DNA of 63,320 nucleotides, counting the filler, from Thraustochytrium aureum (lineage: Eukaryota): the NCBI GenBank assembly GCA_012862495.1. It is 6 parts of 5 records of this genome, joined end to end, with 100 filler letters (N's around TTAATTAATTAA, not from the genome) between each part and the next. Parts side by side here need not be neighbours in the genome. Positions count along the whole stretch, not along the records: positions 1 to 13,549 come from BLSG01000428.1; 5 more parts are not named here. One strand, written 5' to 3'. The notes under the pieces are model-generated. The model was not told the origin of the DNA, did not search any database, and saw only the letters and a program-made list of their open reading frames with translations. A program made the position numbers and the translations under genes. This document shows positions 1 through 54,200 of this stretch, in pieces; the first letter of the stretch is position 1; the number at the start of each line of letters is the position of its first letter.

Positions 1-1
1 C

Positions 2-695
2 CCCAGAAAGCGGAGCCCCAAACCTCGGGGCACAAGACAGGCGCGACGACTCGGGCGCAGTCGTCTCAAAAGAGACGTCGGCATCCAGGCTTTTCAAAAT
101 GCGCTGCCAAGACACACCATGAAGACAACCTCACTCGACGCCATCCGCGCCGCAGTGCTTGTACGCTGCCGCGTGTACGACGCTCTACGCGCACTACAGC
201 AACCGTCAATTCTTAACGCTCAAGATGGAAGCAAGGATGGCCGAGCAGAGAGCGATCGACACGATGCTGAACTGGGTCACGCACGGAAAGACCCTGCCGC
301 TGGGCATAGGAGACGGGAGCAAGACCACCGGGTTTAAGGGCACCTCGCCCGGAGGACCCACCAAAAAGATCAAACGTCACGCCGTCAAATCCGGCTACGA
401 GCTGGTGCTGGTCAACGAGGCCTACACCTCCAAGCGCTCGGCTTGCTGCCAGGGGTATGACATGAAGGCTATGCAGAGACAGGCTGCCCAACGGGGAAAC
501 CGAAGACATCTATGGACTGCGCATTTGCACAAAATGCGGCAAGACGTGGGACGGGATCTCAGCGCGGCCATCAACATCTTTGACGTCTTCTACAACCAAG
601 TGGTGTTGGGTGAACCCCGTCCGCCGCACCTGAATAAAATACGCGATACCGGGCTTCTGGGAAGGACATGGCATTCGCAACTCATTTTAGGTTGA
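2..695 (+). mobile_element. Fanzor1 (eukaryotic TnpB-like RNA-guided RuvC nuclease), C-terminal half; 5' truncated by window edge, about 3 frameshifts
   Basis: Joining frames gives ...KTTSLDAI...LYAHYSNRQFLTLKMEARMAEQRAIDTMLN...LGIGDGS..GFKGTSPGGPTKKI...LVLVNEAYTSKRSACC...(frame 1, 481-552) EDIYGLRICTKCGKTWD / RDLSAAINI...RPPHL. This shows the Fanzor1-type G-D-x/GP segment, the relocated (D/N)E-x-x-TS glutamate, the Zn ribbon and RuvC-III RDxxAAxNI. Confidence 0.85.
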
Positions 696-781
696 GCCTT
701 CCGCTCGCTTACAATGAGATAGTATTGGGCAATTCGTGTCGTCGTGCCTAAAAGGCCATCCCGGGTTACCCGAATCCACTA
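647..781 (+). ncRNA. Candidate Fanzor omegaRNA scaffold overlapping the ORF 3' end
   Basis: Hand-folded: 15-bp hairpin 681-718 with CUUCC loop; stem UGGGCA 726-731 / UGCCUA 745-750; closing helices CCGGG 649-653 / CCCGG 760-764 and AUGGC 668-672 / GCCAU 755-759. Position matches TnpB/Fanzor omegaRNAs. Confidence 0.6.
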
Positions 782-3060
782 CTAGACCTCCTCGTACACG
801 CGCTTGGCGTCGCCGACGAGCTCGTTCGTGACTGGCCGAAACACGAACGACGGCGACGACACTGCGTTCGAATTCGACCGAGCCGGCCTCTGCTGAGCCC
901 GCGGCGACTGCGGGGACCTCGGGGCCGCGTTCTCCTGAAACGGCGGGCTGCGAGGGCTCGGGGCCTTTCGCGGGGGAAGCGTCGGCGGGCGAAAGAAGGA
1001 GCGAAAGCTCTCCGCCATGCTGTGCTTGGTCGGGCGAGGTGTTATGACGGATTGCGTTGCACGCCCCGCTCGCGGGCGAGGCGTTATGTCTGATTGCTTG
1101 CGCGTTCAGAGCGCGGGGACGACCTTGCGAAACCTGAACAGGACTGTATCTGCTGCCTTGGAGTGCTTCGGCTTCGCTGGCCACCTTTTTAATCCCCTCG
1201 TGGAGGCCATCGCGAAGCCCGCGCTGCAGGCCCTGCTCGTAGCCTTCTTGGATGCCGCGCTCAATGCCGTGGTTCCTCCCCTGCTGCACGCCTTCCACGA
1301 ATCCGCGCTGTATTCCCTGTTGCTTGCCCTCCTCGATTCCTCGCTGGAGGCCCTCGTTGACCCCGTGCTGAAGGCCTTGTTGCAAACCCCGCTCGAGCCC
1401 CTCGCGAATGCCGCGCTCGAGGCCCTCCCTGCGCGCTTCGTCCATCGCGCGCTGCTGCAGCTCCCATGTGTCGGGCGTTGCGACCGGGGCAAACGGCATC
1501 GCCATCACCGGGCTCGGAGGAGGCCCAGACGGTGGGCCATTGCCCTTCCAGCCATGGTCGGGCCCATTCACTGGCAGCGCGGCGACGGCGTACTGGCCCA
1601 CGACCATTTCGCGCCGCCGCTTGGTCACGGTCCCAAGCCACACTGCGAACCACACCAAGGCCAGAACGCCGCCGCCGCCCGCGAGGGCCAGCACCGCGAC
1701 GTCCACGTTGGCGAATAGGCCTTGGCCACTTGCGCCATCCACCGAGCCGGCGACAGCAGTCGTGGTCGGCGATGCGGTGGCGTTTGCGCCAGTGGGCACT
1801 GCAGTGGTCGTGGCAGCGGTCGGGGCCGCTGTCGGGGCGGCGGCGACATCGAGTTCCGCCACCAGCAACGACCCTGGCTCAGTGAGGCCGTCGTGGAAGA
1901 GCACGAGCGCCTTGGAGCCTTGTTCAAGAAACCCGACCCCGACAGTCCCGTACAGGTTGACTTTCTCCGGCGCGTTTGGCATCCCAGTCACCTGCAAAGG
2001 CGCCGCCCAGCCGCTGGCACTGGTCAAGCCTGCGCTCCTTGAATACCACACAGCGTTTGATGGGTTGTCTGTTGATGCCCACGCTGCGACGCAGACGGCT
2101 GCGGTACAGACGACGCCAGGCAGTGCGAGGCCGCCTACTGGTGGCTGGTGCAGCACGGCGAAAGGGGCGAACGAAGCGCCGCCGTCAGAGGAGTGGGCAA
2201 CCTCCATGTAGCTCACGGAGCTCCCCGTGGAAAACTGTCCGCAAACACCACGCACTTCGCGTCCGTCTGGCAAGTGATGTCGGGACGACCCCGCCGCGCA
2301 TTGCCTTCAAGTGCGAGAGTTTGCGGAGACTGTTCGATCGCCGTTGGGGCGGTCCACGAGACCCCCAAGTCCGTGCTGCGCAGAGTGTAGACACGGTCGG
2401 CCGAGGTTCCTGTTGGCGAGCCCACGGCCATGATAGCGCAGGTCGCTCCGCTTGGCGCGCAGGCCACTTTCACAGCCTTGAAGCGGACAGAGTTCACAGA
2501 GACACTCGCAAGAGCCTCTGCCGCCGCCCAAGTCTGCCCGCCGTCTGCGGACCGCGTCAGGTAGAGGATGGCCTCGGTGTCAACAACCACAGTGACAGCC
2601 AAGCATGTGCTTCCAGCGCAAGCCAAGTTGGGTCGCTCCTTTGTCCCGGCCACCGGAAACGGCAGCGCCACTGGCGATGCCCAGCTGCTACCCTGCAAAA
2701 CCAAGGCGTGCAAAGCTAATTGGTCCAGCTGGCGCCACACCATTGTGCACGCAGCCCCAACAATCGAGCTGCGGGNNNNNNNNNNNNNNNNNNNNNNNNN
2801 NNNNNNNNNNNNNNNNNNNNNNNNNNNNNNNNNNNNNNNNNNNNNNNNNNNNNNNNNNNNNNNNNNNNNNNNNNNTCGTTGCCCTCAATTACAGCCACGC
2901 ACTGCCCGCCTGTTCGGCACCCGACTTGCGGCCTGCGCAAGTTGGTCGACGGCGGCGCGGTGATCCTCCCGGCCACTTGAAACGCGTACGCCGCGCCAAG
3001 TCCGTCGACGGCCGCAAGTGCCAGCACGACGGCGGCCCAACACGCCCTCTGCAGCCCCAT
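782..3060 (-). CDS. Signal-peptide, BNR/Asp-box (sialidase-fold-like) single-pass membrane protein with a cytoplasmic GxxxG repeat tail; frameshifted and gapped
   Basis: Signal MGLQRACWAAVVLALAAVDGLGA (ATG 3060); Asp-boxes RSADGGQTW, RSTDLGVSW, HSSDGGASF; TM VAVLALAGGGGVLALVWFAVWL; (GLERGIREG)n tract. The C-terminus is either ORF 782-1018 or read-through to 687. Confidence 0.65.
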
Positions 3061-12740: not shown

Positions 12741-13593
12741 CCCCGAGCGCCGCGAGCTCAACCCCGACCTTGCCCGTCATCCTCGCAGCGCTTGCAGCTG
12801 CCCTCGAGAGCCTTTCGGCCGCGTCCGGCCGCCGTTACGACGAGTTCACGTGGCCGCGAGTCTCCGATCGCGTGAAGCCAACGACTCGAAACCGAAACTC
12901 GCTGCTGGAGCGAGGGAAGCTGACGCGCGACGCCGCAGCTCGCTTGACGCACCGTGCTTGCCAGCGCCGCGTCCTCGCGTGTTTGGCAACTGCTTGCCTG
13001 CAGACGCAAGTGACGAGAAGCGAAGGGTGTGGAGTAGACATCAATGAACTGCGCCTTACTTCTACAGGGAGCAAGTACTTCCTGATGGCGCTGCGGCGGT
13101 GCAAAATTCAGAGCTCGAACCACTCTTGTGCGTCCGACGACTTGACAAAACCCGCAAACCCTCACTTCCGTCCCGGGCTCCAGTCCGCGCGGCACTCCGT
13201 CTCAAGCCCCCCAGCGTTCACGTCACATGGTACCTGTCGTCACGTGGGCCGTTTATTGGCGAGGAGGCTACGCGTATGAGAAAAAGGTTCCGGTGCCGAG
13301 TGATTGGTGAGGTGTGGGCCGTGCGGGCTGGGCCCGTAGAGAATGGATGTGCTGATATTTTGGTCAGGGCGGTGTGCGAGGAGGGAGGGAGCGCGCTCTC
13401 GAGAGCGCGGCGGCGGCAGACGCCGATCGCAGTGGCGCGCGGCGTGCGGAAGGCCCGTGCGGGCCTCGCACGCGTTGGGTTTGGTTTGCTAGCGGGCGCG
13501 TTCGGGGAACGCTGCTCGGCGGCTCGGGGATGGGCGGCGATTTTGGTCCNNNNNNNNNNNNNNNNNNNNNNNNNNNNNNNNNNNNNNNNNNNN

Positions 13594-13605
13594 TTAATTA
13601 ATTAA
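13594..13605. other. Artificial scaffold linker TTAATTAATTAA flanked by Ns (also 25489-25500, 32371-32382, 49333-49344, 59922-59933)
   Basis: Identical six-frame-stop palindrome embedded in short N runs five times. Confidence 0.97.
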
Positions 13606-13746
13606 NNNNNNNNNNNNNNNNNNNNNNNNNNNNNNNNNNNNNNNNNNNNGTCCCGACGCGCTGAAGCAAATATGCGGTAAGCTCCAAGAAAATTGGGACA
13701 TAGTCCTTGGACCTTTCGATGATTGCCCCACAGTTGAAATGATAGA

Positions 13747-16700
13747 TCAATTCGACATCCAGCGCGCGTCTTCTGTTGCTTGCGCTGAGCGGAACAACAT
13801 ACCAACGACGTTGTGGCCGAGCCCCAGAACCCTTAATGACAAGCTCCCAAGGGTTATCTTCCGTATTTGGAGCGGGGGAGACGCTGGGAGAGGCATTGGG
13901 ATGACATCTCCAGTATCAGATCCAACGTCAGGTTCAGGAAAGATGCGGTTCACCTCCGCCACGGCAGCTTCCAACTTTTGATCGATCGCATCTTGAGCTG
14001 TGCGGGTAGCACAAACACTAGCAGCCCACCTTACGATTGTGCGAACAACGTGGATTGTCCTTTCTCTGACAAAAGCAAATTGCCTGTCCTGGTCGGCAGC
14101 CAAGTCAAACTCCAGAGCGAGAAGGTTGCTTGTCTTGAATCTGAGTCTTTGTTGCGCTGATTCGTCGCTTTCTTCTCTGACCCTCGCGTACATTTCGATT
14201 GCAGGCGTTCGTCGGCCCTCGTTGTTGAAGGCAGTCGAGACGGCGGCGAGGTTCCCGATTCGGTGCATCCACCCGGCAAGAGCCACCCTGGGATGGATGT
14301 GATCGACTTGAACGGCTTTGTCTTGGTGTGGGATGCAAAAGTGGGCCAAACCCCTTTGCGACCTGTACTCGGTCTCCCATCGAAACGCACCTTCATAAAC
14401 CCAAAGGACAAGCAAAATTCTCGTTCGAACTTTCCGAGTCCCATACCTGAGCCGGGCAATAGCCGCTGCAAGTCGCCGGACACTCTCAGCAGCAAAAAGT
14501 CTATTGCGGAGCTCTTGCATGCGGTCGTCAGCGTCGGCTTGTCGATTCTGCCGATTCTCGAATTCTTGGTGGAAAAGGGTGACAAAGTTGCTTTCGTCCA
14601 CCAACGCGTCTGAGATGTGGCATATGAGCAGAAACCGCACGAGTGTCACCTGTGTAGCGAACATTCTTCCAGTGGCTGCTACAGGATCCAAAATACGGAG
14701 AATGTCGTGCATCCAGCCCGCGCTAGGCAAGATGTGGAAAACTGAGCACAGCGAACGCAGCTCTTGCAGGTCACGCCTGAAGCTTTGTGCATTCTCAGGT
14801 TCGCTGGNNNNNNNNNNNNNNNNNNNNNNNNNNNNNNNNNNNNNNNNNNNNNNNNNNNNNNNNNNNNNNNNNNNNNNNNNNNNNNNNNNNNNNNNNNNNN
14901 NNNNNNNNNNNNNNNNNNNNNNNNNNNNNNNNNNNNNNNNNNNNNNNNNNNNNNNNNNNNNNNNNNNNNNNNNNNNNNNNNNNNNNNNNNNNNNNNNNNN
15001 NNNNNNNNNNNNNNNNACGGGGATTGCTATTGTGCGCGACGCGCTCGATGATATCCAAAAGGTAGACGTCTTCGAACTTGTGAAACCAAAAGCTTGAGCC
15101 TACCTCCTTCTTGAAGAATTCCAACGACTCTTGCCCCCCGGAGCTCAAAAAATATGGCATGCACTCCTCGGCACGGAGTCGCGATTGCTGTGGCACACCG
15201 GGTAGCACGCTCAATCGAGCAGCGTTGCCGCCCGCTCGCACGCTTTCCCAGAAACGTCTGTGCTCAAGATGCAACTCAACTAAGGCCTGTACAAGCGTGT
15301 CGGCCTCGTTTCTCTCAGCTCGGGTGGGTGACCTTGACCACAATTGGAACGCGCGAACGAACAGATCGAAGGGGGAGAAAAACGTTGGCATGTTGCAGTT
15401 GTGTCGCATGAAAAGACCCATTGCACCGACCTCCTCGGACGCCCACGCGACCGCGTACCCTATATTCCACAAGGCGGCCATGGCTGTCTGCAGATTCTCT
15501 CTCATTTGTAGCAGAACCATTGCAATGATCATAATGTCATTCAAGTTTGCTGCCTCGCCAGTTGGCAGCATCGCTCCCCGCCGTGTTGCGGAGCACACGT
15601 TGTCCAGCACATCCCAACCCTCCGGTGAAATGTTTGCGTCTTGAATTGCAGAAAGGCTACGCCACAGCTCCTCTGCGATCGCCTTGAAGTTGACGAATGT
15701 TTGTTGGTTGTGGTTGGTTGCGAGTGGCTGAACTGTTTCTCTTGCGGCCCTTGAAACTGTGTTGGTGACTAGCTGGAGGCCGTGGTTGTAGGTATCGAGC
15801 TCCTCGTCGCCTTCTCGTCGAAGGAGCGGCTGCTCCTGCTCCCCGTCGTGCCACAGCTCAGGTTCGTGCTCCTGAAGCTTGCTCAAGTCTGGTCCAAGAA
15901 CAGCCGATAAGAGCTGAACGCGCTGTGTGTACACGTCGTTTGGTTGGTATGCGACGCCTCCGTCCAAATCGTTGCCGAGATTCCCTAGTGCACTCACGAA
16001 GTTATGGCGGGCCTGGCCGATTCCTCTACGCCTCTCCATAGCTCTTCTGTATTGCCCTTCTAGGTGACAAATGGTTTCAAGCCTGTCGCTTGCGCTCTCC
16101 AACAATGTTTGAGCTCGCTCCTGGGGCATGTCACTTGTGATCTCCGCGACGCGTCCAAGAAACTCCACAATGCGCGCTGTGTAACCAGTAACGAGATGCA
16201 GTCGTTGTTCGTCCATCCGAAGTGCACTAAGTCTGTTGATGTCGTGGATTGCGTCCTCACGTGTGAGTGCGCAGAAGTCTCTCCACCTCTCGTAGGACCT
16301 CTGCAGCATGTCATCCGGTTCTTGCTGGGCAGTGAGTAACCACTCACGGATCATAGGGCTTTGCAGCCTGTTCTTGAGATCGTTTACACTCTCGACGACG
16401 ACGGAATCGACAAATGCGCACGCCAAGAGGCTCAGGTAGGCAGTTGTGATGCGACCCTGACCGTCGAGGACAGAGATTGGCCAATCGCTTTGCCTAGCTC
16501 TGGCAGCTCTTGTGATTCCTCTCTGCTGCCTTGGAGCAAAGAGATAGAGCAAGCCGTGTTGGAGTCGGTTTGCCTCCTGTGCGCGCTCTTCCGTAGGATC
16601 GAACCCCAAAATGCCAAGCTCCAGCAAGAGACCATGAGCAAAGTTCGCAGCGTGCTCTGGCGCCCAGGAGTATGCGCGCTGTATCCCGTGAATCCACAAG

Positions 16701-16792
16701 GGAGAGTTCCTGCCGATGTTGGAGTGGACTGCATTCGTCGTCCAGCTCAACAGATCTTTCAGCGTCGTTGATCGTACCTCTCCATTGGCCAT
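13747..16792 (-). CDS. GmrSD-family modification-dependent nuclease: DUF262 (ParB-like) with a large insertion plus C-terminal DUF1524 HNH; about 1000 aa across an N gap
   Basis: DUF262 motifs IHGIQRAYSW, VLDGQGRITT and LFMRHN..SPFDL; HNH VDHIHP..HRIGNLAAVSTAFNN. Both frames are open right up to the gap (..SEPENAQSFRRDLQELR..). Confidence 0.78.
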
Positions 16793-17886
16793 GATTGTGC
16801 GTGAAATGCCAAGCTGGGGCTTAGCAGTGTCGAGATGAGTTTGTGGTTGGACTTGCCGTTTGTGAGGTTGCTCGCGGTGGGTCGGCTCTTCTTCGTTGCT
16901 GGTCGAGTGCCTGTACGCGTGCTTGCCTTCGTTGCTTGCTTCGACTTGCTTGCTTCCTCTCGCTTCGGTCCCTCAATCTATTGGGGGATTGCTTATCCCA
17001 GGGAGACTGCTCGCGATGTCAACAAATGCATCTGCGCAACTTCGGAGAGAATCCAACCGCTCAGTCAAAGTCCCAACTCCGCGCGCCGATGCGAATGGAT
17101 TTGGCATCACAACTTCGGTGCGTTGGATTCCGTTTCCAGCGCGGCAAATAGACTGCACCTTCGCGACGCGGCAGCTGCAGNNNNNNNNNNNNNNNNNNNN
17201 NNNNNNNNNNNNNNNNNNNNNNNNNNNNNNNNNNNNNNNNNNNNNNNNNNNNNNNNNNNNNNNNNNNNNNNNNNNNNNNNNNNNNNNNNNNNNNNNNNNN
17301 NNNNNNNTTTGCTTGGCCAGAGCACTGGCACTGTCCAGATGGTCGGCGCGGGCCAATGTCGGCGCGTCGGTTGCAGCGAATCCCCGACTCGGCGCGGCAC
17401 GCGCCCGAGGAAGCCAAGCAACCGAACTCCGAAGTGTCGCCCGCCGCGGGAAGCCTTGGCCGAACGTGAATCACTGCGGCCAATGAATCAGTCCCGAAGC
17501 ACAAGTGTGGTCACTGCTCATGCGACTCAGAGAAAGAGAGTACCGGTAAGTAACCCCAACGGGCAGGGAGGGGTACAGATTAGGTACTGTCGCTTTTGAG
17601 CCACTCCAGATGTCGGTTGCCTCGGTAAATCCTGGAGACATCTGGTGCGTTGAGCGCATTCGCTGTTGCTCGTCGATTCTCTGTGAGGTAGGTAGGTGAG
17701 TGTCAAAAAAGCGTCTCGAAACGGCTTTGACAATCGCGTCTCGAAACGGCTGGAAGCTCGCCGCGGAGTTTAGACCGGCGGGAAACAACTTGGTGCTATC
17801 GCTACGAAAGCGAGTCGCCCATTCCGCGGCAACGTTTGCAGCGCGGATCAAACCAAGCTTGCGCAGAGATCGAGCCTATACGCGCG

Positions 17887-20800
17887 ATGCAACTTTCCCA
17901 TGCAGTTCTGAAACAGGCCGAAGACTTGCTGGACCATCCTGAGGCGATTGAGAGGCAAGCAGCAGCTTGCTCATCGAGCGGGCGACGTGACAGCACCTTC
18001 GCAAGTATGTCGGCCGGGTTGAGTATTAGCGCGTCACTTCTAGGGCATTATTTTTCCGTCAAATGCGACAAGTACCTGTGGCGAGCTGCTCGGGGCCATC
18101 GCCGCAACGAGTACCAGGAAATTCCAGCGAGGCAGATTGCGCAAACGAAACGCGGCGATGACTTTGAGACCGCCAAGATATCCATGCTTGATGGAGGGGA
18201 TCTCCGCCATATCCCAGGCGACTCGAACGACCTGACCGAGGTTCTCGACGGCGCGGAAGGACCGTTTGTGATGTCGCAAGCAAAGATTGAATTATATCCC
18301 GCAAGCGCCTGGCAACGAAGCGAGCCACCCAAGTGGCTCAGGCGGCTGGAGGAATGCGGGGCGCGAATGAGTATTTGCAAGCCAGACTTTATATTCGTGG
18401 ACAAAGTTGAAGGGGGGGGCTTGGAGATTTTGGTTGTTGACGCCAAGTCAAGCTCTCGCGCTAAGCTTAGTCACCTTGTTCAGGTAGCCATTTACATGGA
18501 GCTGCTTGAAGCGTTCATGGCGATGGTGGGCCTGAACGATCAGCGTTCTGAGGAATTCAAGATTACGGTCTCGATGTGGGGTGGCGTATGGATTCCCAAG
18601 GCAGGAGGCCACCAAGTCAAGCTGAATGGACGCCAATGGTCTATCGACGACGGGCCCGACCTGTTTGACCTAACGCACTTGCGTGAACAACTTCGCATTT
18701 TCCTTGAAGACGAGTTGCCTGCAATCTTAGGGAAAGAGAGTCAGGAGCTGTTAGATTGGAGTATAGAGTCACATTGCGCCACATGCCTGTACAGGGACGA
18801 CTGCTATACAAGGGCGGTATCGGACTCGACCGTGTCCCGACTCGCAGCTGTCCCACGGGTCAAGCCTTCGGACCGGGAATGGCTGCTCAGGCAACTTGAC
18901 GACACTGGCGGAGCAATAGTCGCAGGTGACATTCCTGTCGACAAGCTCCTTAGAGTTGCTGCGCAGGTTGAGGGCGCACCCGTCGACCGTGCCCGATTGC
19001 TCCGTATTCTATCTGCAGAGGGACTCGAGGCGTCAAACGGAGCTGTCCTTAAGGTTTCGGGTCATGATGGTGAACAGGCCTTGGGAATAGCTATCAAGCC
19101 GTCAAGGAGCAGCATAGACTTCCCGCGAATGGAAGATATCGCTGTGGTTCTCAGCTTAGTTGGCGACCCGACTACGCTACCACCACGACTGGCCATGTGG
19201 AACGTGGAGCAGGTGGAATGTAATGTCACCGGGCCAACTTGTGCCGCAACCGCGACGAGCTTCATTGTCTCAAACGACTGCAAGAACTTTGGTGAATGCG
19301 CTCGTGCGCTCGTATGCTGCTTGCATGAGTTGATGTGCGTTCTTGATGAGAAGGTTCCGCGGCGCAAAGTTGCTTTCATGGTCTACAGCGCAAATGAACA
19401 AGCGCTCCTTACAAGTGTGCTGCTTGGTATTGCGCTGGCAGACGAGGACTCTGAGGCAGATGTAGGCCTTGCCAAGGCGGCGATGGCTGTATTAGCCACC
19501 TTGGGAGGCGGTTCTGAGTGCATGGACATGAAGGCGTGCGTCAAAAAGCTCTTTCACGACGACGCAGTCAGACCCAAAACGACAGACTTTCGTCAAGCTG
19601 GTCGAGAAGAATATGAAAGGATTATCCCCGCCGCGTATCGTCGCGCTTTTGAGGCCTCCAGCAAAAGTCACGTATTTGGCAACGGGAAGGTTATGGTAAA
19701 ACCTATGCGATTGGCCTTGTACAAATGGTCGCTTCTCGTATACCTCGAGCGCGAGGTTTCAACGGAGGAGTTTGTAACTGCGTGCCAGCAGTCCAGCGGG
19801 TGCGAATTTGAGGCCCTTGCCCGAGCAAAGGAGAAGAACGATGGTCGTGAACGCAAAGCCAAACTAGAAAACTACTTCCGGCCCCGCTTAGCTGTGGTGG
19901 AGCTCTTCGTTCAGCGCCACTTTGTATTGCGAGCCCCTGGCCCATGCAAGCTCAACGATTTAGCGAGGCTTGCGGACTGTTGCCCCAACACCTCGCTGGA
20001 CGATGATAGCCTTTTCCAGTGTTGGGTCAAACTGGGCCAAGATTCGATTGCTGCGCGACTTCGAGAACGATCGCTGTGTTTGCTCAAAGTGGTCGCTTTC
20101 CTTCGAAATACACTGACGAGTGGGCAAGCGGAGAACATGCCCTTTGAGGCTCGCCCATACCTTGTCTTCGACGCAGCTGAATTTTTTGTGAGCACCACAA
20201 CTTCGCTGCAAAGTCCTCACCTTACGCGTCTTCTCTTTATCGCACAGCACGAGGTGCTCTCTGGAATTAATGCACATCGCACCGAGCGGGCTCATCTTCC
20301 CCTGCAAGACTTGCTACTTATGGGCAAGGGAAAAGCCGCAGCACTCGAAAGAACAAATGCCACGCAAAAGGCTGACAAGGCGATGGCAAACTGCTCTCTG
20401 CTTGAGTTTAGGCTGCTTGACGGGAGTGAAAACGCCCAACTCGAGGTCGAGAACAACGAGTACCTGTTCTCGTACATCCTTGTGCTCGATGATGCCGTTG
20501 GGCGGCACGATGCGCGGACATTTCCAGACTACACGCGAATGGATGACCTGAACCCGGTCTTCTCTGGCCGAGTTGGCGGGCCGGCCCTGGCCAAGGTGAC
20601 CGAAGTTAACGGAGGCAAGGTGACTCTCAGTGTGCTGTCAAGCGATTGCGCTACCTTCCTCAACGCTGGCGTGAGAGCATTGCTGTATCGGCGTTACGTC
20701 AATTTGAGGCTGTTCCAGCGTGAGGTCGACGCGCTTAAACGCCACTCTCGCAACCAACCGACGCTATTTGCTGAGCTCCTTGCCAACCCGGCAGTGGCAA

Positions 20801-23018
20801 GCGTCTGGAAGCCGCTGCGCATGCCCCCTGACGACCTGCGAGGGGCAAATATTCAAGCCAAAATCGAGCGTGCCAAGGCGCGCTGGAATTTGAGCGTCTC
20901 TCAACGCGAAGCTCTGACGATGTGCACAAGCCGTCATCTTGTCAACGTTTGGGGCCCGCCTGGATCTGGCAAGACGTACTTCCTTGGGTGTCTTGTATGT
21001 CTCCTCCTGGAGTGCTTCAAGGATTCGCAATTTCGTGTACTCGTTTGTAGTTCGACAAACTCGGCTGTCGCGACANNNNNNNNNNNNNNNNNNNNNNNNN
21101 NNNNNNNNNNNNNNNNNNNNNNNNNNNNNNNNNNNNNNNNNNNNNNNNNNNNNNNNNNNNNNNNNNNNNNNNNNNNNNNNNNNNNNNNNNNNNNNNNNNN
21201 NNNNNNNNNNNNNNNNNNNNNNAAACAACCGAAGGAGTGGAAGCAGGCGTGTACCGATTCGGATACGCCAAAGTGGACGGCTGTGTGAAGGCCGAGAACT
21301 TTTCCTTCCCCAAAGGCCAACTTTGCTCAGTCATCGGAAGCACCCCTTGGCAGCTTGCAAAGCAAAGGAATCTCACCGCGACGGCAGAAACTATGCATGG
21401 ACCTTTCGACGTCGTCATAATCGATGAGGCTTCTCAAATGCGGATTGGTGCCGCTTCAATTCCGCTTCGGTTTTTGAAGCTCGACGGGCGACTCATCCTA
21501 GCGGGCGACCACCTTCAACTGCCCCCCATTGTCAAGGCCGAATATCCCGCTCCGCCACCTGGACATCTCAATCTCACTGGCTCTATCCTCGACTGCCTCC
21601 TTCGCGAACAGTCTGCAGCTCCTCTGTCCCCATTTACGAAGGGGCATGTAGGACCTGGTGTGAGTCCAGAAGCAAGGAAGTCGCGAGTGGCCAAGCTGTG
21701 CAACAACTTCCGAATGAACAAAGCTCTTGCTGCCTTCACGCAGCTGACTTACGGGACCGACTATGAGGCCATGGGGATCAACGCGTGCCGGCGTCTTCCA
21801 GTAGCAAGTCTGGACGACCCCTCGATGTGCGGCACCGATCTTCTCAACCCGCACAAATCGTTCGTTGCCTTTCAAATGCCGGAGGTCGACGATGGGACGA
21901 CAGTAGAGGAGATGGCCAGCAACGAGGCGGTTGAGGTGTGCCGCATCGTCGAGGATCTTTTCTGCAGGTGGTGCGGCCAAGACCCGGTAACCAATGAGCT
22001 CTTCATCGTGTCACCCCACCATGTCCAGCGAATCGCAATCCGTGCCGCTCTCAGGGCAAGCAAGGTCAAAAAAGTTCGGGATGCAGAGCCTCTTCTGTTC
22101 GTTGACACCGCAGAAAAGGCTCAAGGCAAGACCGCAGACTGTGTTATCCTGTGCTACGGCATCACAACGCGGTCAAGGCTAGAGGAGGACGCCGCTTTCT
22201 TGTTTACTCTTCCAAGGCTCAACGTGGGGCTTTCTCGTGCACGTTGCAAGACGATTCTGATCTATGGCAAGCCCATTGTGAAGGCCAAGCCCCACATCTT
22301 TTCCAATCCAGGAGTGCTGCAAGGATTTCGCCTGTTCAAGCACGCACTCCATTTTGCGGGTTTGAAAGACCCAACGTTTTCCCAGGAGGAAGAAGGCACC
22401 GCGAACGCAAGCCCATTTGAAGCGTCGCTGGAACTCTTACGAAACATGTCGCTCGATTCCACAGCCGGAGGGGCTGGGAAGGTGGATTCTGGAAACGCCC
22501 TTGCGACCAAAACTGAGTCGCCGCCGGTTTCAGGTCAACTGGTGCTTGGAGAGAGCAAAATCTTAAACTCGCAGACAACGCGAGACGGTACGGAGACTCT
22601 GGCAGAATCGGTAGCACACAGAAGTTCTCGAGACAGCGAAGCTACAACGATCCCACAAGTAGAGACGCACTTCAAGAACGAAGGGTCCCATTCTCAGGAC
22701 ACACTGCACGGCACCGGAGACCCGCAATTGGAGTTCGAGAAGAAAAGTGAGACAGTGCAAAAGGCCGCAAGCGACGACTCCACGCTCGCACAAGACAATA
22801 AATCGGCGTGTATCGTTGGCATTCCCAACAGCGATATTGAGCGAACAACTCATCGCCGTGCGCCAGAGATCCCAAGACAGCAAGTGGAATACAGGTCGCA
22901 TGACGTGATCGACCTCACTGAGGAAGATGAATCCACGATTGACCTCAGTGTCACGGAAGCGTCAACATCTGCAAGCTTCAAACGACCTCTTTCTTCAGGC
23001 GAGCACCACACAGCTTAA
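17887..23018 (+). CDS. PD-(D/E)xK Cas4/RecB-like 4Fe-4S nuclease fused to a Dna2/Upf1-type SF1B helicase (AAA_11/AAA_12); N gap; start 17887 or 18007
   Basis: ISASLLGHYFSVKCDKY (Cys1), KPD..VVDAK..HLVQVAIY, CATCLYRDDC; WGPPGSGKT, STNSAV, IIDEASQ, LAGDHLQLPP, NFRM, TAEKAQG, RLNVGLSRAR. Confidence 0.88.
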
Positions 23019-25444: not shown

Positions 25445-25544
25445 NNNNNNNNNNNNNNNNNNNNNNNNNNNNNNNNNNNNNNNNNNNNTTAATTAATTAA
25501 NNNNNNNNNNNNNNNNNNNNNNNNNNNNNNNNNNNNNNNNNNNN

Positions 25545-26681
25545 AAACAGTCTCTGGCATCACTTCGATGTTCGCAACAAGCCTCTCCGGCTTGCGCGTT
25601 GTTGCGTTCAAGTTGTGTCCAAAGCCCGTGGCTCCGGCCACGCTCCGGCTTGCGCGCTGTTGCGCTGAAGGGCAGGCTGACCCAGTTCGGAGTGCGACGC
25701 GCGCTCTGGATGTCCGTATCGATGCGTAGAGTAGCACAATGCTGGTAGGCAGGGCACGCCTCGTTCTGGCTGGAGACAAGTAGACCATCAAGTACTCTAG
25801 AGTACAGTGGGTACTTCGTGTACAGCATGGTATGGGCAGGGAGTCGACAACCAAAAACAAGGTTCACGAGATGGAAAGTTGGCCTCGCCGTCGATGACAC
25901 GGGTAGAGTACCACGAGGAAACATTGTTCGAAAGCCGGCATCTCGTTTCTCCAGTTGCTCATGAAAACAAACCGCGCTCCGAGTCGGCGAAGGCAAAACT
26001 GCTCGGGAGCTGGCTGCGTACGTTAATACGGAGGCGGATCAGGACGACCCGTCGGGAGCCCACCGTATCCGAGTCTACAGATCCCTGCGCGTCGGTTCCT
26101 CCCAGACCTCGATACTGCTTTCTGCGCTGCGTCACTTCAAATGTTCCATCCGAGTTGTCTCACAAAATCGATCATGTTGACCGCCGTACGCAAGGGACAT
26201 AGGTTCGTTACGGAGATACCCGCACGGGGGTATTTGGCGAGTATATTGTGCAAGAGCTGTTTAAAAGGGAAATTATTGAATATGAAAATAACCCACGGGA
26301 TAGCTACTTAAAATACAGGCAGGCTCTGCTTTGGTGTCGCTTGGCTCAGCGGCGCGTTTTTCGGTCGGGAAACCACCAGACACGATCCGGTCAATTGTGT
26401 ACGGCGACAAGTCCGTCTTGAGGGCGCAGTGCCAGTGGGGTATTCATTCTAACTCATCAGCGAGTTGCTACTTTCATCGATTGATTGTGGCATCTCCGTG
26501 CCCAGATCGGGAGGGCCACTGCCGAGCCCTCGAACGCAGCCCTCGAACGCAGCCCTGTTATCGATACCAAATGGAGAGCGGGGCCAGCAGAGACCTTACG
26601 CCGCGCGGTGCGACCGCAACGAGGGCGAGCGCTGAGCGACGCGTGAAAAGAGAAAACGCTGCTTGGCGTGCAGGAGCATGG
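25545..26681 (+). repeat. Left copy of a diverged ~1.1-1.4 kb inverted repeat (partner 30936-32326)
   Basis: Collinear reverse-complement blocks: 25660-25780/32062-32200, 25930-26095/31620-31797, 26254-26303/31314-31363, 26500-26645/30957-31123. Both copies end in GCAGGAGCATG. Confidence 0.9.
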
Positions 26682-26701
26682 NNNNNNNNNNNNNNNNNNN
26701 N

Positions 26702-29700: not shown

Positions 29701-30938
29701 ACTTTGTACTGTGAGGTTGTGCTTTTCTGGGGGGGCAAGAGGCAGCAGTCGTAGCGGGCTGGCCCATCACTCTCCTGGATCCTGACTTGAAACCCGATGG
29801 CAAACTTGAAAACGGAATCGAAAGGGGGCTCAGCGAAGGTGATCTGGCTGTGCCACGCGTGTGCGGAGCACGGAAAGCACCCTTGCACGCCACGGTTTAT
29901 TCTTCGTAAATTCAATGAATCGCTCAAAGCGCTCGCCAGGTCTACTTGAGATATTCTTGCATCAACTTGATCCAGGGCTGCCATGCTCCAGCCGAGCTCA
30001 AGCGCTGAAGACGTGAGGCCACTCACGGTGAGGTTGCGAGGTGCCCAGCACGGCGCGAACGGGTTGCTTGCGCTTGCAGCGCCGACTGCGACGAGCTGCT
30101 CCGCGAACCCGGTGTCCCCGTTGCACACCGTTTGCTGCGGCTCGCTCATGTACACCGTCATACTGTTCGAAAACCACTGGCTGACAACGCACTCGCAGCG
30201 CCACGGGTTGTTGTGGAGAGAAATGCCTCCAAAGGAAAACCTGGTCACACCGCCCTCGACTATGGGCTTGGAGAAAAGTTCGGCGGTCCCAGCAGGAAGC
30301 GCCGCGAGCGAGTTATTGTGCAGGATGAGACTCGTCAGCTTTTTCAGCTGGGCTAAGCCGTCGCCCACCTCGCGCAGCCCGTTTCCGGGAGCCGTGATGG
30401 ATTGGAGCTTGCGTCCTACTTTTTTCACTGGCAAGATGTTGAGCGATGTGAGTCGGTTGAAACTGACGTCCACGTGCGTCAAGCTTGGCAGCTTCCAGAG
30501 TTCGGAAGGAAGCCCGCTGAGCCCGGCGCCGACGATTTCCAGTCTCTCCAGCGACCCCATTCTGCTGATTGACGCAGGGATTATGTTGCCCGAGAAACCG
30601 AGAAGCTGGCGCAGACACGCGAGCGAAGTGACTGAGGTGATCTTGCCGATCTTCCCCGAGCAGTCCTCGTCCAGCGCTTGCGCGGTTCGCCCGAGCAGTG
30701 CAACGCATGCTGCCAGTGCGGCAATCAGCCTCAGCANNNNNNNNNNNNNNNNNNNNNNNNNNNNNNNNNNNNNNNNNNNNNNNNNNNNNNNNNNNNNNNN
30801 NNNNNNNNNNNNNNNNNNNNNNNNNNNNNNNNNNNNNNNNNNNNNNNNNNNNNNNNNNNNNNNNNNNNNNNNNNNNNNNNNNNNNNNNNNNNNNNNNNNN
30901 NNNNNNNNNNNNNNNNNNNNNNNNNNNNNNNNNNTCAT
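26702..30938 (-). CDS. Receptor-like protein: signal peptide, LRRs + LRR-CT, two FN3 domains, Cys-rich GCC2/GCC3-like repeats and a multi-pass TM region; gaps and frameshifts
   Basis: LTHVDVSFNRLTSL, LTSLILHNNSLAALP, LHNNPWRCEC; WAPRNLTVS, LEANTTYAFQVRAETSAGVGNFS; CEVCELGKF, CxPCP; KFKILIGFFQV, YWFECLELVRKLLLT, HPY. Confidence 0.82.
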
Positions 30939-32326
30939 GCTCCTGCACGCCAAGCACGCGTCGCTCAGCGCTCGCCCTCGTTGCGGTTACAGCAGCGGCG
31001 ATGCGGAAGCTCGTACCGCGCGGCGTAAGGTCTCTGCTGGCCCCGCTCTCCATTTGGTATCGATAACAGGGCTGCGTTCGAGGGCTGCGTTCGAGGGCTC
31101 GGCAGTGGCCCTCCCGATCTGGGCTCGGAAGAGGTTTGTGTTTTTGTAAAAACGAATACCCCACTGGCAGCACGGGCAGGTTTGGCGCTGCCCTCAAACA
31201 TGGTCTTGCACGCTGCGCAGCGCCAGGGAGGATCCTCCTTGGCTGCGCAGGACCAAAAACGGACACGCAACGGCAGGCGACACCAAAGCAGAGTCTACCT
31301 GCACTATCCCAAACTATCCCGTGGGCCATTTCCATGTTCGATAATTCCCCTGTTAAGCAGCCCGTGCGGATCCTACTCGCTTATTACCCCCGTGCGGGTC
31401 CCTCCTTGTGAGATTGCGCGCGGCCATCATGACGTGCGTGCTGTGATGTGAGATGCTGGAACATCGGAAGTGCCATCAAGGACAGCGCTGGGCAGGCAGG
31501 CACTTTGCTCCTGACGTTGGGCACTTTGCTTTTGAGGTCACCCCTCCCGTCTTTCAGCGCGTAGAGTAACAACAACCCACCCAAATGGAGCACATCAAGG
31601 ACAGGGAGGGCCCGACTTGCAGCGCTCTGCAGACTCGCCGAAGGTGTGCTCCCGGCAGGCCGTCCTGATCCGCCTCCGTATCGGTACTTACGTGCCCACC
31701 TCCAGCCTGCAGCCAGCTCTCCCGAGCAGTTTGGCGATCGCCGCCTCGGCGCTCGGTTGGTTTCAAGAGCAGCTGGAAAGAAACGACGCCGGCTTCCAAT
31801 CAAGCAAGCAAGCGAGAGCACTTGGCAATGCTTTCCTGTGGCGCGTGCTGAGGCTTGCTTGCGCGGTGAAGGCCCTGCGGAGCTCTGTGAGATCACGGAA
31901 GCAGACTTGGACACGGCGTGCAGCCCATCGCCGGCGCAGGACAGACAACGCTACATCTCGTGCACATCTTTTCGTTGGCTCCCTGTGCATCGCAGGGTGT
32001 ACCGTGTGGAGTACGTGATGGTGGAAGGAGAACTTACTTGCCGAGGGAAAGAGCGGTCGGTCGGTCTCCAGCCAGAACGAGGCGCGCTCTGCTCTGCCTC
32101 CCTCCCAGCATTGTGCCGCGCTACGTACTCTACGCATCGATACGGACATCCAGCGCGCGCGTCGCACTCCGCACGGAGTCAGCCTGCCCTTCAGCGCGCG
32201 CAAGCCGGAGCGGGGGCGGGGCGGGCACGGGCTTTTGGACGCACTTGAAGCCGGAGAGCCACGGGCTTCGGACACGGCTTGCTTTGCTATGGCGAGAGAT
32301 CATTGACGCGACGCCAGAGGCTGTTG
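30936..32326 (-). repeat. Right copy of the inverted repeat, corresponding to the upstream/promoter region of the LRR receptor gene
   Basis: Reverse complement aligns with 25545-26681 and ends at the receptor ATG. Confidence 0.88.
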
Positions 32327-32426
32327 NNNNNNNNNNNNNNNNNNNNNNNNNNNNNNNNNNNNNNNNNNNNTTAATTAATTAANNNNNNNNNNNNNNNNNN
32401 NNNNNNNNNNNNNNNNNNNNNNNNNN

Positions 32427-46722: not shown

Positions 46723-47554
46723 CGTGGGACGTGGGGCTCGCCGCGCGCCACGTTGGCTGTGCCGCTAGAGTGGCGCCAGGCGCGACCGCGTTTCGTTTGC
46801 TCGCCTTTGACGCCTCTGGCGCTTTTGGCGCCTGTCGCCCTCCGGCTCGCAGGCGGATCGGGCTTGGCTCTGCTGGGAGATTGTCGCGCTATGTGCCTGA
46901 ACGCCGCCGCCGTTTTTGTGCTCTGCTCGGGAGAGCACTTGCAGTTGAGTTAGTCGAGCACTTACCTACCGCCAAGACCTTGCGGCTTGTCGACGAGGCC
47001 CTGCAAAGCGCTGGACCGGCAGGCGAAGGCCTGTGCGAGCGTCACGGCCGATCCCGTGGTCAAGTGATCAACAGGCTTGCGCTGGCAGGCGGAGGCTTGG
47101 CTCGCTCGGTCCATCATCAAACCAAGAGTCGAACGCACACAAATGCGGTGGACGCTCCGAGGCACAAAGCCCCGCTGCTCGCAGCCTGCTCGCTCCCGCT
47201 CACGCCAGTGCTCGAGCAGTGTGCAGAATCGGCCGGACGAGCGAGCCGCCCTCTCGCTGGCGAAAGCGCGACGACTCGGACGGCGTCGTGTGGGTCCTCT
47301 TCGCCGCGAGCGCACAACGCGGTGCGTTCAAAGCACGATGCTCGCCCCCTCGTTGGGCCAGAATCACGGCAGATGGACGACGATGATCATCACGATCCGA
47401 GTGATCAGCCTGGCTTTGATCGACTCGGTGAGTTTGTGTCTGGCCGTGACCTCCTTGCCGTGACCTCCTTGCCGTGACAGCGGGGCTGGCAACTCGACGC
47501 AGGAACCTCCCTGACCGGGCGCTTCGCACGTCGACTCGGAGGGATCGTTTGGCA

Positions 47555-49075: not shown

Positions 49076-49487
49076 CGCCTGACGTCGAGAGTTGAGCCCT
49101 GGGCTGCCGATTGGAACTGGCGTAGCTGTTGGAACTTGAAATGGTCGACAAGGTCGTCTGTCAGACCCAAATTGAGAGGAGGCCCCGGGGCGGTGAGGTG
49201 GTGCCATCGGAGGGCAATCATCCGCCAAGCCCAGCATCATCTGCTTATGATGGCTTGGGCTCAGGCGCTGCGGGGCCAAACTGTGCGGNNNNNNNNNNNN
49301 NNNNNNNNNNNNNNNNNNNNNNNNNNNNNNNNTTAATTAATTAANNNNNNNNNNNNNNNNNNNNNNNNNNNNNNNNNNNNNNNNNNNNCGGGCGTTGTCG
49401 CAAACAAGCGCGTGCGGCTTGGTATGATTGATTCCCGCTTCAGCACAAGCAGCAAATCGAATTTGTTATTCTGCGCAAGCTTGCTTG

Positions 49488-50818
49488 TCACGCTCTGGCG
49501 GTCGCACTCCAAGCCTGCTCGGAGGCGCCGTGCGCGAGAGAGTACGCAACTGCCTCAACCTGGGGCTGGCCCGGGCGCAGGCGCCACTCGAGCGAGGGCG
49601 CGTACATGGCCAGCTCGTCCTGCGTATAGGGCGGATAGAGCGGTAGTCCATACTCGCGGAGCGACTTCATCTCGCGGTGCACGGCGCGCACAACGGTGCC
49701 CTGGTCCCTGCCCGACTCCACTTCGCGGTCTGCACAGCACAGCGGCTTGACGTTCCTCTCGCTAAAGCTCTTGATCTTGTCTCTCCAGTTAGCCCAGTGC
49801 AGCAACCCGTACATTGGCGGTGTTTGGCCCGACTTTAGCGGAATCACGCCTTGGCACTCCAAGCGTTCGAGGATGTCTTGCAAAGGCTCTTTTTCAAGGG
49901 TGAGGCGCCATCCCAGGTAGAGCCGCAACATGTCGAAGGACGCCTTGTCCGTGACAGTTTCTTGCAGGATGTGCTCGTGAAACACGAGGATGTGGCCCGG
50001 CGGGACGGTCACCTTTTGGCTTCTCTGGCCGAGCATCTCTTGCTCTGCTGGGTCGCAAACTGGCTCAAACCCGCTGTGCACAGATGGGCCAACCTCTTTG
50101 TGCGAGCCAGGCACGCAAGAGAATACCTGCCCTTCCAGGTCGAGGTTGCACCAGCCGCCATTGATCTTGTCGAGCTTTTTTGCCAAAGGCACTGCGTCGC
50201 GATGCCACGACTCGGGCGAGGGCGAAATCCCTTTGCGGCGAAACATGAGCCTGTCGATGAGCTGCTCGAGCCGCCAGGGCTCCCCTTCGGCGGACGGCGA
50301 AAGCAAGGAGCAGATCTTGCGAAATAGCGGCAGCAGGTGGGCCATTGCGTGCTCGCGGAGCTTCCGAACGGATGGGCAGTGGAACGACGCCGGGTTGCCC
50401 AGGGCCGCGAAACCGCCGAGAACAAAGTCCGTGGCGCCCGGCTTAAACTCTGGAAAGCCTTGGATATCTCTCATGATCTCTGCACGAAACGCTTCCAGCC
50501 GGGGTGGAGTTAGCCACGCCACCGGCACGCACACAAACCCATTCGTCTCAAGGTCAACGACCGCCTGTTCCACGTCAAAGCCTGCGTCCGCTGAAAGCAT
50601 CAACAAGCCCGCGGCGCCGCTATGCGAGCTCTGGCCAGCGACTTCCGCGGGCACTCTTCGCGGCGCACCTTCGTCTCCAACCTGGCTCGGCCGACCTGCT
50701 GGCTTGCACCTCTTTGGCGGCGAGGGCGGCGCATCGTCCGCGTTCACCTCCCGCTTGACGCCTCTGGCCTCTTCGCCAGCCGGGCAGCGCACTCCGCAAC
50801 GCGTGTTCGCCTCCGCCA

Positions 50819-50819
<1 letters not shown>
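49488..50819 (-). CDS. 2-oxoglutarate/Fe(II) dioxygenase (PhyH-like double-stranded beta-helix fold)
   Basis: LETNGFVCVP, LGGFAALGNPASFH, ESWHRD (HxD), GGWCNLD..FSCVPGSH, VPPGHILVF, RLYLGW. Confidence 0.78.
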
Positions 50820-50880
<61 letters not shown>

Positions 50881-51242
50881 NNNNNNNNNNNNNNNNNNNN
50901 NNNNNNNNNNNNNNNNNNNNNNNNNNNNNNNNNNNNNNNNNNNNNNNNNNNNNNNNNNNNNNNNNNNNNNNNNNNNNNNNNNNNNNNNNNNNNNNNNNNN
51001 NNNNNNNNNNNNNNNNNNNNNNNNNNNNNNNNNNNNNNNNNNNNNNNNNNNNNNNNNNNNNNNNNNNNNNNNNNNNNNNNNNNNNNNNNNNNNNNNNNNN
51101 NNNNNNNNNNNNNNNNNNNNNNNNNNNNNNNNNNNNNNNNNNNNNNNNNNNNNNNNNNNNNNNNNNNNNNNNNNNNNNNNNNNNNNNNNNNNNNNNNNNN
51201 NNNNNNNNNNNNNNNNNNNNNNNNNNNNNNNNNNNNNNNNNN

Positions 51243-54200
51243 GAATTGGTAGGTTTTTGGATTTTTTTGTGGTTGTTTTGTCTTTTTGTTTGTTGTCAGG
51301 CCAGGCGCTGCGGCAGGCTGGTCTCGGTGAAGGGTTGCTGGGCTTGGCTGGCTGCCTTTGGCCGCCGACGTTGGCTTTGCGCGCCTCCAGCTTCGCCCCC
51401 CCGCCGATTTGGCAACGCCGCCTCTGGCCAAGTGTGCCACATGGGCGCCTCGCGGCTGCCTTTGGCCGCCGAGGCGGGACCTCCATAATCGCTTGGGGCC
51501 TACTTTTTGCGCTTTTTAGGGCTGGGCGGCTGCGGCGGGCCGCTTCCGCGTTTATCCTTGGGCTTAACGCCTTTGCGCTTGTCTTTCGGCTTTCGCGCGC
51601 GCGCTTGTCAGTGGGCTTTTCCCGCTGAGCGCCGTGCTCTGCGCAAAATCTGCGAAACTTTTCTTCGCGGAGGCGATCACAACCGACTTGCTTGCACGTT
51701 TGGCCCACGTTGCACATCCCGCAGTACTCGAGGCCGCGCCGCGCTTCCTTTGTTGTGCAGCCGAGCTCGTTGGCAGACGGCGTTTTGGCCGGGCAGTTGG
51801 CAATCGTGCATGTTCCCGAGCATTTGCACTTGTGCGCAAGGCACACGCCTTGCGCCCCGTCGATCGGGGGCGCTCCACACAGCCTGTCCTTGGATATAAG
51901 GCCAGAGCAATGCAGAGGAAAGTGCCGCACGCAAAACGACGACTTGTTGCGGCGTGCCTCCGCACATCCTTCGACCGCACAACCCGGTGTTCCGACGCGG
52001 AAAGGCCCTTGAGGGCTCAAAGCCCGGTCGCCCGGAGGGGACGAGGGAGTGGGCTCTGGGCGCTCTAGATCTGCGGACTGTTCGGGGCTACTGCTAGGCT
52101 CTTCAACGGCCATGCGCACGTCTTGTTCGGCGGTGGGTTGGCGCTCAGTGGCGTGGTTGCGCGCCGGGACTTGTTCGGCGTTGGGTTGGCGCTCAGCGTT
52201 TGGGCGCTCAGTGGAGTAGTCGCGCGCCGTGAGCGCCCAAACGCTGAAACGCCCCACGCGCTTGGGCGCCCCCGTCAAATCTTGCCCCGAAAAGACTCTG
52301 ACCACAGAACGGGCGCTCTCCGTGTCGACCGTTTGAGCGACAACTAGGCACTCGACCGCTCGGCCTGCGCCCTTCAAGGCGCCGAGCACCTGATCGGCGA
52401 AAACATTCGCGTAGAAGCTTTGATAGTGCTCCACGCAGATAACCGCCTTGGTGGCGTTGGGCAAGAATTGAAACGCGGCGAGCTCCTTGGCGCCCCAGAG
52501 CGACATTTCGCTGCCGACACTTTGACAGCTGCAGAGGTTGGCTAAGTGGATGACGCTGACCGACTCTGGTTCGCCAAAGCTGTTCGCGCGTAGCCATTCC
52601 TGCAGCAGCGCCTCGGTCTTGGGTTTTGGCGGCTTGAGGTTCTTCTTGTTGTGGTAGAAACGGTTCGCCTTGAGGACGACCAGGCCAGCCTCGTCCACGA
52701 GGTGGTTGAACTCGATGTCTTCCCAGAACGTCTTGACGGGGTAGTAGACGCGCTTGTCGACCGTGGCGCGCACATTGAGGTACAGGAACGAGTAGACCGA
52801 GTAGGACACCATAAAGGGTGACTTTGGGGCCACGCGCGACCCCGAGGGGTCGCGCCGGATACCGATCAGGCCGTACTTGTCGACGCTCCCGCCGATCACG
52901 TCGAGCGGCTCTGTAGCGGCAGAGCCTTCAACTGGCCGCGGCACTTTTGGACCCCGAATCGGGTCCCCTGGCCTCATGCGGCGACAGGTCGGGCGCTCTC
53001 GAGCTGCATTTGTCACCGACGTGGCGCTGGGGTCGCCAAGCTCTCGCTGCTGGACGATGGCCTCGATCGGCCCCATGACGTCGGAGAAGTGGCACGCTTC
53101 AGGCGCGCTCGGCGACGCGCCACAGGCCGCGGCGACCTCGGGACGGCGAAAGCAAGCAAATACGTTGTCGTCCAGGACCCAGACCCAGTGCAAGCCCAGG
53201 GCGCACGCCGCGCGCTGGACAAAGTGCCGTGCGAACCCGATGCCGCCTTTCTGGGCTGTGAGGACGCTGCCAGGCCAGCCAGCCACGCCCTTGGGGCTCG
53301 GGAGGAGTGTCGGGCATGCCGATCACGACGTGCACAGCGCCAAACCGTTCTACGTAGCCGTCAAACTCGGCTCCCTTGCGCACGACAAGCGCAACGACGC
53401 GTTTGTGGCGCTCGTGCTGGGGAATACTCCGCGTGTAGTCGAGCAGCGCGGTGCCGCTGCGGTTGTACGAGGGCACAAAGATCCACTGGACGCGCTTGCC
53501 CGCGTCAGAGAGCTCGACGCGCTTTGCGTGGCGCTTGAACAAGTCCGCTTCGAGCCGGCCTGCTCCGCTGCTGCCGTACAAGCCTCGCACCGGCACGCTC
53601 AGCGCGACCTTGGTAGTTTCGAGGGGCGCGGGCAGGCTGAGCTCATCCCGAAAGCGCCGCCTTCCCTCTGAAAAGTCCAGGAGGAGGGCCTGCGAGGCCG
53701 GCCTCGCAGCGATTTTGCACGCCGCGCTGACGGCCTTGGCGGTATTATTGCCTTCGCTCCGCCTCCGCCGTGCACGTCGGTGGCGTTGGCCTCGCGCACA
53801 GTATCGAACAAGGTCTCCTGAACATGGGCTGCTGCTGCCTCCAAGACCAGCTCTTTCGCCCTGCCCTTCTTGGCGCCGTCCGCAGTTGTCGAGTTGGCCC
53901 TGAGCTTTGCTGCCAGGTCCTTGAGGCTCTCGACGGCGCCGGCAAGCGCGCCGCTCCCCAAGACGAGCTTAAGGCGGCCGTCAAAGTTGATGCACCGCTC
54001 TAGTACTTGTTCCAGTCCATCCACCACGTTGGCCTTGTGGCCCGCGAAAGGCGGCCGCGCAGTTTCGCACTGGTCTTTCAAAGCCTTGACCTTGGCTCGC
54101 CCGACTTCGGAGAGCAGGAACTCGCCCTCAAGGCCGAGCAAGTACTGGTTCGCAAACAGTTGAAGCCACTTGTTGGGGAGCGCGTGGCACGCGGCAAAGA

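Follow-up and report, generated by a model that had tools for sequence, protein, structure and literature searches.

A partial and likely catalytically dead gene copy, probably of a novel Fanzor1 subfamily, in Thraustochytrium aureum

Reading frames broken by frameshifts at the edge of a draft-genome sequence raise the question of whether a nuclease gene is intact and hidden by assembly errors or has truly been disrupted. Such a locus opens the window, the 63,320-nucleotide stretch of Thraustochytrium aureum DNA analyzed here, in which the original prediction placed the C-terminal half of a Fanzor1 nuclease in three frames from base 2. The Fanzor1 identity and the stitching of frames stood, but the homology begins only at base 64-65, matching residue 433 of P0001 (644 aa), one of the three closest proteins, and what lies at 65-695 on the plus strand, stitched across three frameshifts and ending with a stop codon at 693-695, is the C-terminal third of the gene. 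With an X at each of the three breaks, the stitched piece contains no stop, shares 69.7% identity with P0001 over 208 columns, and covers P0001 residues 433-640, or 33% of that protein. A profile of eight full-length relatives matched three window frames (E values of 9.7e-74, 2.3e-10, and 2.7e-7), with no other above-threshold match among the window's 1,564 six-frame segments. The lack of any TnpB or Fanzor HMM match had been named as grounds for abandoning the assignment; in addition to this family profile, Pfam PF07282 scored 30.1 bits against a cut-off of 26.3 on the long frame +3 segment. Elsewhere in the window, neither the Fanzor gene nor its right end was found a second time. The features identified are listed in Table 1.

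Table 1. Features identified at the left edge of the window
Feature	Position	Strand	Description
Piece of unrelated multi-copy repeat	1-63		Extends beyond the left end of the window; outside Fanzor coding sequence
Junction	64-73	+	10 bases common to the repeat and the Fanzor gene
Fanzor1 piece 1	65 to about 182-187	+	Frame +2; P0001 433-473, helices after RuvC-I; tblastn 66%
Fanzor1 piece 2	183-487	+	Frame +3; RuvC-II Glu (417-419) and zinc-finger CC half (444-449)
Fanzor1 piece 3	about 488-552	+	Frame +1; CxxC half (526-537); tblastn 81% to P0001 575-595
Fanzor1 piece 4	552-695	+	Frame +3; RuvC-III Arg-Asp, tail, and stop
Candidate omega-RNA core	633-680	+	48 bases, about 98% alike in contigs of runs X4 and X7 with unrelated left flanks
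Element right side, candidate omega-RNA 3' part	681-781	+	Right end probably at about 770-781
Convergent host gene, BNR-repeat protein	782-2775	-	Likely membrane span; frameshifted; likely end VYEEV-stop at 782-787

The motifs reported for the locus were recovered. One half of the zinc finger, IYGLRICTKCGKTWD, lies at 508-552 in frame +1, apart from the rest as had been described, and both catalytic residues named at the outset are present in frame +3: NEAYTS (414-431) holds the alternative RuvC-II Glu, and RDLSAA (552-569) begins with the RuvC-III Arg-Asp (552-557). RuvC-I, REC, and WED are not encoded in the window at this locus, and no single frame there holds a complete D-E-D triad together with REC and WED.

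Protists and giant viruses are known to carry Fanzor1. To place the locus, eight full-length relatives of 606-657 aa were identified with the frame +3 segment among 793 candidates. A sequence search of the PDB with P0001 alone returned nothing, and a 22-sequence profile ranked PpFz1, SpuFz1, and GtFz1 at the top (E values of 9.8e-15 to 2.1e-12), with TnpB at 0.08. The AlphaFold model of P0001 (pLDDT of 69) gave seven Foldseek matches at E ≤ 0.001, all of them SpuFz1, GtFz1, or PpFz1 chains (TM scores of 0.51-0.55, E ≤ 2.2e-10, 13-16% identity), and no Fanzor2 chain was among the matches listed. By predicted fold and profile, the P0001-P0008 family is thus assigned to Fanzor1. A search of cluster representatives yielded 2,470 proteins at E ≤ 0.001, 150 of which were listed, and motifs were counted in the 116 of 165 family proteins with lengths of 560-850 aa. 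All 116 have the RuvC-I Asp and the alternative RuvC-II Glu, and 115 have the RuvC-III Asp. At RuvC-I, DPG predominates (n = 89), followed by DVG (n = 15), DPN (n = 6), DKG (n = 4), and DTG (n = 2), and the closest proteins carry DVG; DPG at this Asp is described as nearly exclusive to Fanzors in the available text of PMC10711439. The alternative Glu sits about six residues before the zinc finger in the family and in the window copy alike. The TDG motif of the WED domain, a region outside the window copy, is present in the family as T in 109, D in 55 or N in 60, and G in 112 of the 116 proteins. The zinc finger of the window copy has TS, four Cys, and RD, with the spacing xxCC...CxxC that is shared by 45 of the 116 relatives; the fingerprint given in the accessible part of PMC3627910 is [TS][TS]-x-x-C4 followed by RD. 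A FastTree phylogeny, rooted at the midpoint, groups most of the xxCC proteins in a single clade (support of 0.99), and most DVG proteins form a subclade (0.999) nested among DPG proteins. Look-alikes in the Atlas are eukaryotic and nucleocytovirus proteins. One relative, P0066, is 1,740 aa long with its Fanzor1 region at 1155-1722, a possible fusion to a transposase or another domain.

To evaluate the frameshifts, contigs of public sequencing runs were aligned to the locus. Runs X1, X6, and X8 are from one sample, whose independence from the assembly is only suggested by contigs that lack its indels; X2 comes from a different study than X1, and an RNA origin of X2 and X3 is a guess only. The window has one surplus base at 487 and has lost one base behind 551, and near-identical contigs of X1 and X2 lack the former and contain the latter. 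The X1 contig covers 302-672 with one mismatch at a depth of 5.1 (host depth of 2.6-3.9). At about 182, relatives approximately 91-96% identical stay open, with two extra bases in the C run behind 182; this indel was judged against these relatives only, as no near-identical contig reaches it. All three indels lie in C runs, and further window indels were seen against the same runs at 759, 1119, and 2759. The Pfam domains of AAR2, an RRM protein, and glutamate-cysteine ligase in the window are likewise split over frames, with base runs visible by eye at the shift points, in agreement with the earlier remark that essential genes here are frameshifted too. Because near-identical contigs show neither the indel at 487 nor that at 551 and housekeeping genes are also affected, these two are assembly errors, as had been suspected, and the indel at 182 is likely one as well.

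Contigs of the public runs also point to a break at base 64 that is probably genuine. In no frame did bases 1-63 match any of the 165 family proteins. The RuvC-I Asp, residue 383 of P0001, would be expected 50 codons upstream of base 65, a position taken up by the repeat; in X1 and X6, a relative with 96% identity over 64-331 runs on upstream in frame, and the window differs there. Loss of the RuvC-I Asp abolishes cleavage in a Fanzor2, according to the text available for PMC10530073. Bases 1-65 are covered by several differing X1 contigs at depths of 3-7, one of which goes on into other sequence past 65, identifying the left-hand segment as a multi-copy repeat. One X1 repeat contig is identical to the window over 33-73 and then diverges, and the uninterrupted Fanzor relative matches from 64; thus, 64-73 is common to the repeat and the gene, and we infer a join through 10 bases of microhomology. 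Within the window, repeat part 41-64 has just one weak 24-base match elsewhere, at 47266. The fold of 1-65 was not above shuffles, and a 7-bp hairpin at 45-65 was therefore not counted as evidence. An X8 contig (167 bases, depth of 2) crosses the junction, aligning to 1-122 with one mismatch and no gap and reaching 63 bases to the left and 49 to the right of the shared 10-mer, and this agreement indicates that the break is probably real, although this shallow contig is the sole one bridging it; in X1 and X6, no contig bridged the junction by 31 bases on each side. The proposal that the element could be intact was therefore not supported for this copy, as coding ends upstream at base 64 at another repeat. 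With only P0001 433-640 encoded and the junction bridged, the locus was classed as a fragment rather than a nuclease, and with its front end fused to an unrelated repeat it likely cannot cut DNA.

The 96% relative is an X1 contig of 1,181 bases with a depth of 38, about ten times the host depth in that run, a figure that is not a copy number. Its identity to the window is 96% over 64-331 and 86% over 302-605, where the alignment stops; the drop could reflect a mosaic origin from different subfamilies or be produced by the way contigs were built. Among 62 conserved columns, the window departs from the family in three, a rate only slightly higher than in the closest relatives (0-1 of about 40) and lower than in distant relatives (7 of 46 and 9 of 48). 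The family-invariant residues K484 and H582 are both altered in the window copy and retained in the high-depth relative, and H582Y is also carried by the near-identical X1 contig. Contigs of X2 and X3 represent a copy of 98% identity that has lost another 35 bases, and in X2 a 5-base deletion is added. When the window was compared with the high-depth relative, 22 of 39 listed differences fell at third codon positions (p = 0.0025; one X4-only row was dropped from the 40 listed, and 24 more differences lie outside the tally), implying that both copies descend from genes under selection. The window copy is probably a partial, likely catalytically dead member of a novel Fanzor1 subfamily, close relatives of which may be intact. 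A search for proteins of near length returned three distant fragments, and the high-depth relative was not among them.

Most probably, what survives here is the 3' third of a Fanzor1 gene, fused at base 64 with a repeat that has no relation to it, and this is likely a catalytically dead and decaying mobile-element copy. A Fanzor-only element of about 2.3-2.4 kb, a size taken from contigs of the three closest relatives, would have inserted just behind the stop of the host gene; a later deletion or rearrangement via the 10-base microhomology would have fused its 3' third to another repeat, after which selection on the copy would have relaxed. By analogy with SpuFz1, as far as the text available for PMC10432273 describes it, full-length family members would sit alone in their elements, and intact members would use an omega-RNA made from the right end, with its guide drawn from the flank, to cut alleles lacking the element adjacent to a TAM. 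The window copy, with its left two thirds lost, could at most supply an omega-RNA in trans. The same text lists 19 of 42 SpuFz1 loci as full length and 23 as not, and partial copies are thus usual, in keeping with truncation here. An X1 contig at host depth bridges 650-1051, showing that the insertion beside the stop of the convergent gene exists in that sample too.

Such a contribution in trans might be the reason for the remnant's persistence: it could have been kept as an omega-RNA donor, like the SpuFz1 ghosts, targeting the element-free allele at the 3' end of the host gene. The segment shared between the window and X4/X7 contigs with unrelated left flanks has the pattern expected if related elements, or elements lacking an ORF, shared an omega-RNA core; X1 likewise contains the right side and the insertion site, and ghost omega-RNAs function with SpuFz1 (PMC10432273, from the part available). 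We regard this as unlikely, as neither 633-680 (z of -0.86) nor pieces of 633-790 (z of -0.55 to -1.66) folded above shuffles, Rfam gave no match, and the alignment of the high-depth relative ends at 605, so that its omega-RNA differs. With these folding and Rfam results the omega-RNA is a lead only. The shared segment opens exactly with AATAAA (633-638), a polyadenylation-type signal within the gene's last codons, and by eye the loose end of the X4/X7 contigs past 680 resembles window 742-770. A Helitron-like hairpin before CTAG near 762-786 was discounted, as folds of the right side were not above shuffles. A broader proposal, equally speculative, is that thraustochytrids harbor an active, unreported Fanzor1 subfamily (DVG, xxCC) of about ten near-identical copies, in which broken or ORF-less copies share the 48-base omega-RNA core and guide in trans, the target at this locus being the 3' end of the host gene.

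It is similarly improbable, and compatible with truncation of a mobile element, that the high-depth relative resides on a co-occurring large DNA virus and that the window copy is a virus-delivered remnant. The nearest Atlas clusters are half or more viral, with Nucleocytoviricota commonest, relatives P0156 and P0008 lie on contigs of 229 kb and 95 kb, and persistent nucleocytoviruses in thraustochytrids are described in the accessible text of 10.64898/2026.07.28.741200. Against a viral carrier, protein scans of viral contigs gave no relative, the flanks are host genes, and the three closest proteins, P0001-P0003, are on lone contigs of 2,386, 2,337, and 2,341 bases.

That the repeat instead interrupts a full-length gene with its 5' part outside the window, perhaps being spliced out as an intron (CAG at 58-60), is very unlikely. 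The repeat is multi-copy and an AG stands four bases ahead of the homology start, but repeat copies match on to 65-73, beyond this AG, making the junction look like the interior of the repeat rather than its end; by eye, the window has one more base after the AG than the relative does, and an unspliced insertion would still leave the gene dead. An intact element in which every break including the junction is an assembly artefact, as in the original prediction, is highly unlikely even though two of the three indels are shown to be errors, gaps and frameshifts occur throughout the assembly, the locus is at the window edge amid repeats, and an uninterrupted relative exists, because the X8 contig carries the identical junction, family-invariant residues are altered, and the overlap at the junction, at 10 bases, is too short for a misjoin by the usual assemblers.

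Compared with SpuFz1 (8GKH), GtFz1 (9CER), and PpFz1 (9CF0), the family resembles them in the predicted fold of P0001, its length, the T-D/N-G motif, the alternative RuvC-II Glu, the W-x-R-D of RuvC-III, and a single open frame on a 2.3- to 2.4-kb contig. It differs in its low identity (13-16%), in DVG replacing DPG at RuvC-I of the nearest relatives, and in replacement of the first zinc-finger Cys (xxCC...CxxC), and the window copy has the last third only. As with the partial Fz loci and ghost Spu-1 of Spizellomyces punctatus in the available portion of PMC10432273, broken copies keep the right end beside full-length members; unlike the loci and elements described there, the window copy keeps a third of the gene, its left end is swapped for another repeat, and the omega-RNA is a candidate. 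The alternative Glu and the PF07282 zinc-finger domain are shared with Fanzor2 and IS607 TnpB, from which the family differs by its greater length (606-657 aa) and Fanzor1 fold. Membership in the latter group was rejected on this length and on the Foldseek and profile results, and no serine recombinase was seen in the window.

No related loci were found in viral contigs (protein and DNA-pattern scans), metagenome contigs (protein scans), or prokaryote genomes; two metagenome loci from a DNA-pattern scan were rejected as chance 20-mers in bacterial DNA. A search of freely accessible full texts returned no report of Fanzor or TnpB in thraustochytrids. In all but one file of the supplements to PMC10530073, PMC10711439, and PMC10432273, whose tables may give accessions in place of names, none of six lineage names occurred. 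A Replitron paper naming both Fanzor and labyrinthul- draws no link between them in the text accessible, and the available part of a 2026 preprint on thraustochytrid viruses contains no TnpB or transposon term. Taken alone, the locus is an unremarkable disrupted transposon copy within a draft rich in errors; its value is as a pointer to a Fanzor1 subfamily of thraustochytrids, a transformable and industrially grown group, that has diverged to 13-16% identity with the members of solved structure. The full-length P0001-P0003 could go straight into TAM screens, and with a tractable native host the role that Fanzors play in their own genomes would become testable.

The remainder of the window provides context. 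For its purF, the named protein that matches best is from Hondaea fermentalgiana (76% identity), suggesting a thraustochytrid host. Against an X2 contig, the convergent BNR gene shows an indel at 1119 and a loose end at 1098; its protein contains, at 1200-1420 (minus strand), tandem G-x-x-x-G repeats scoring as Yae1_N, in the tail behind the likely membrane span. Five artificial linkers of the form N44-TTAATTAATTAA-N44 were identified (13550-13649, 25445-25544, 32327-32426, 49289-49388, and 59878-59977); these join separate gappy scaffolds, and gene order across them is thus meaningless. Facing scaffold ends at 25580-26700 and 30915-32200 share long inverted segments, 74-98% alike, which are two alleles or paralogs of the 5' part of a gene for an LRR/fibronectin-like membrane protein and were probably assembled twice. 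An intron-free block at 14795-16972 (minus strand) and 17731-23018 (plus strand) has a GC content of 46-55%, compared with 61%, and includes a long frame without assigned identity; by eye, it also holds a nuclease and a superfamily-1 helicase gene (Walker GPPGSGKT, DEASQ), and a foreign or mobile origin of the block (14795-23018) is possible. One or more very long frameshifted frames at 50620-58923 (minus strand) contain helicase-like motifs (DECHH) and a Cys-rich stretch, and the adjoining dioxygenase-like frame at 49488-50880 has, by eye, the look of a giant-virus gene.
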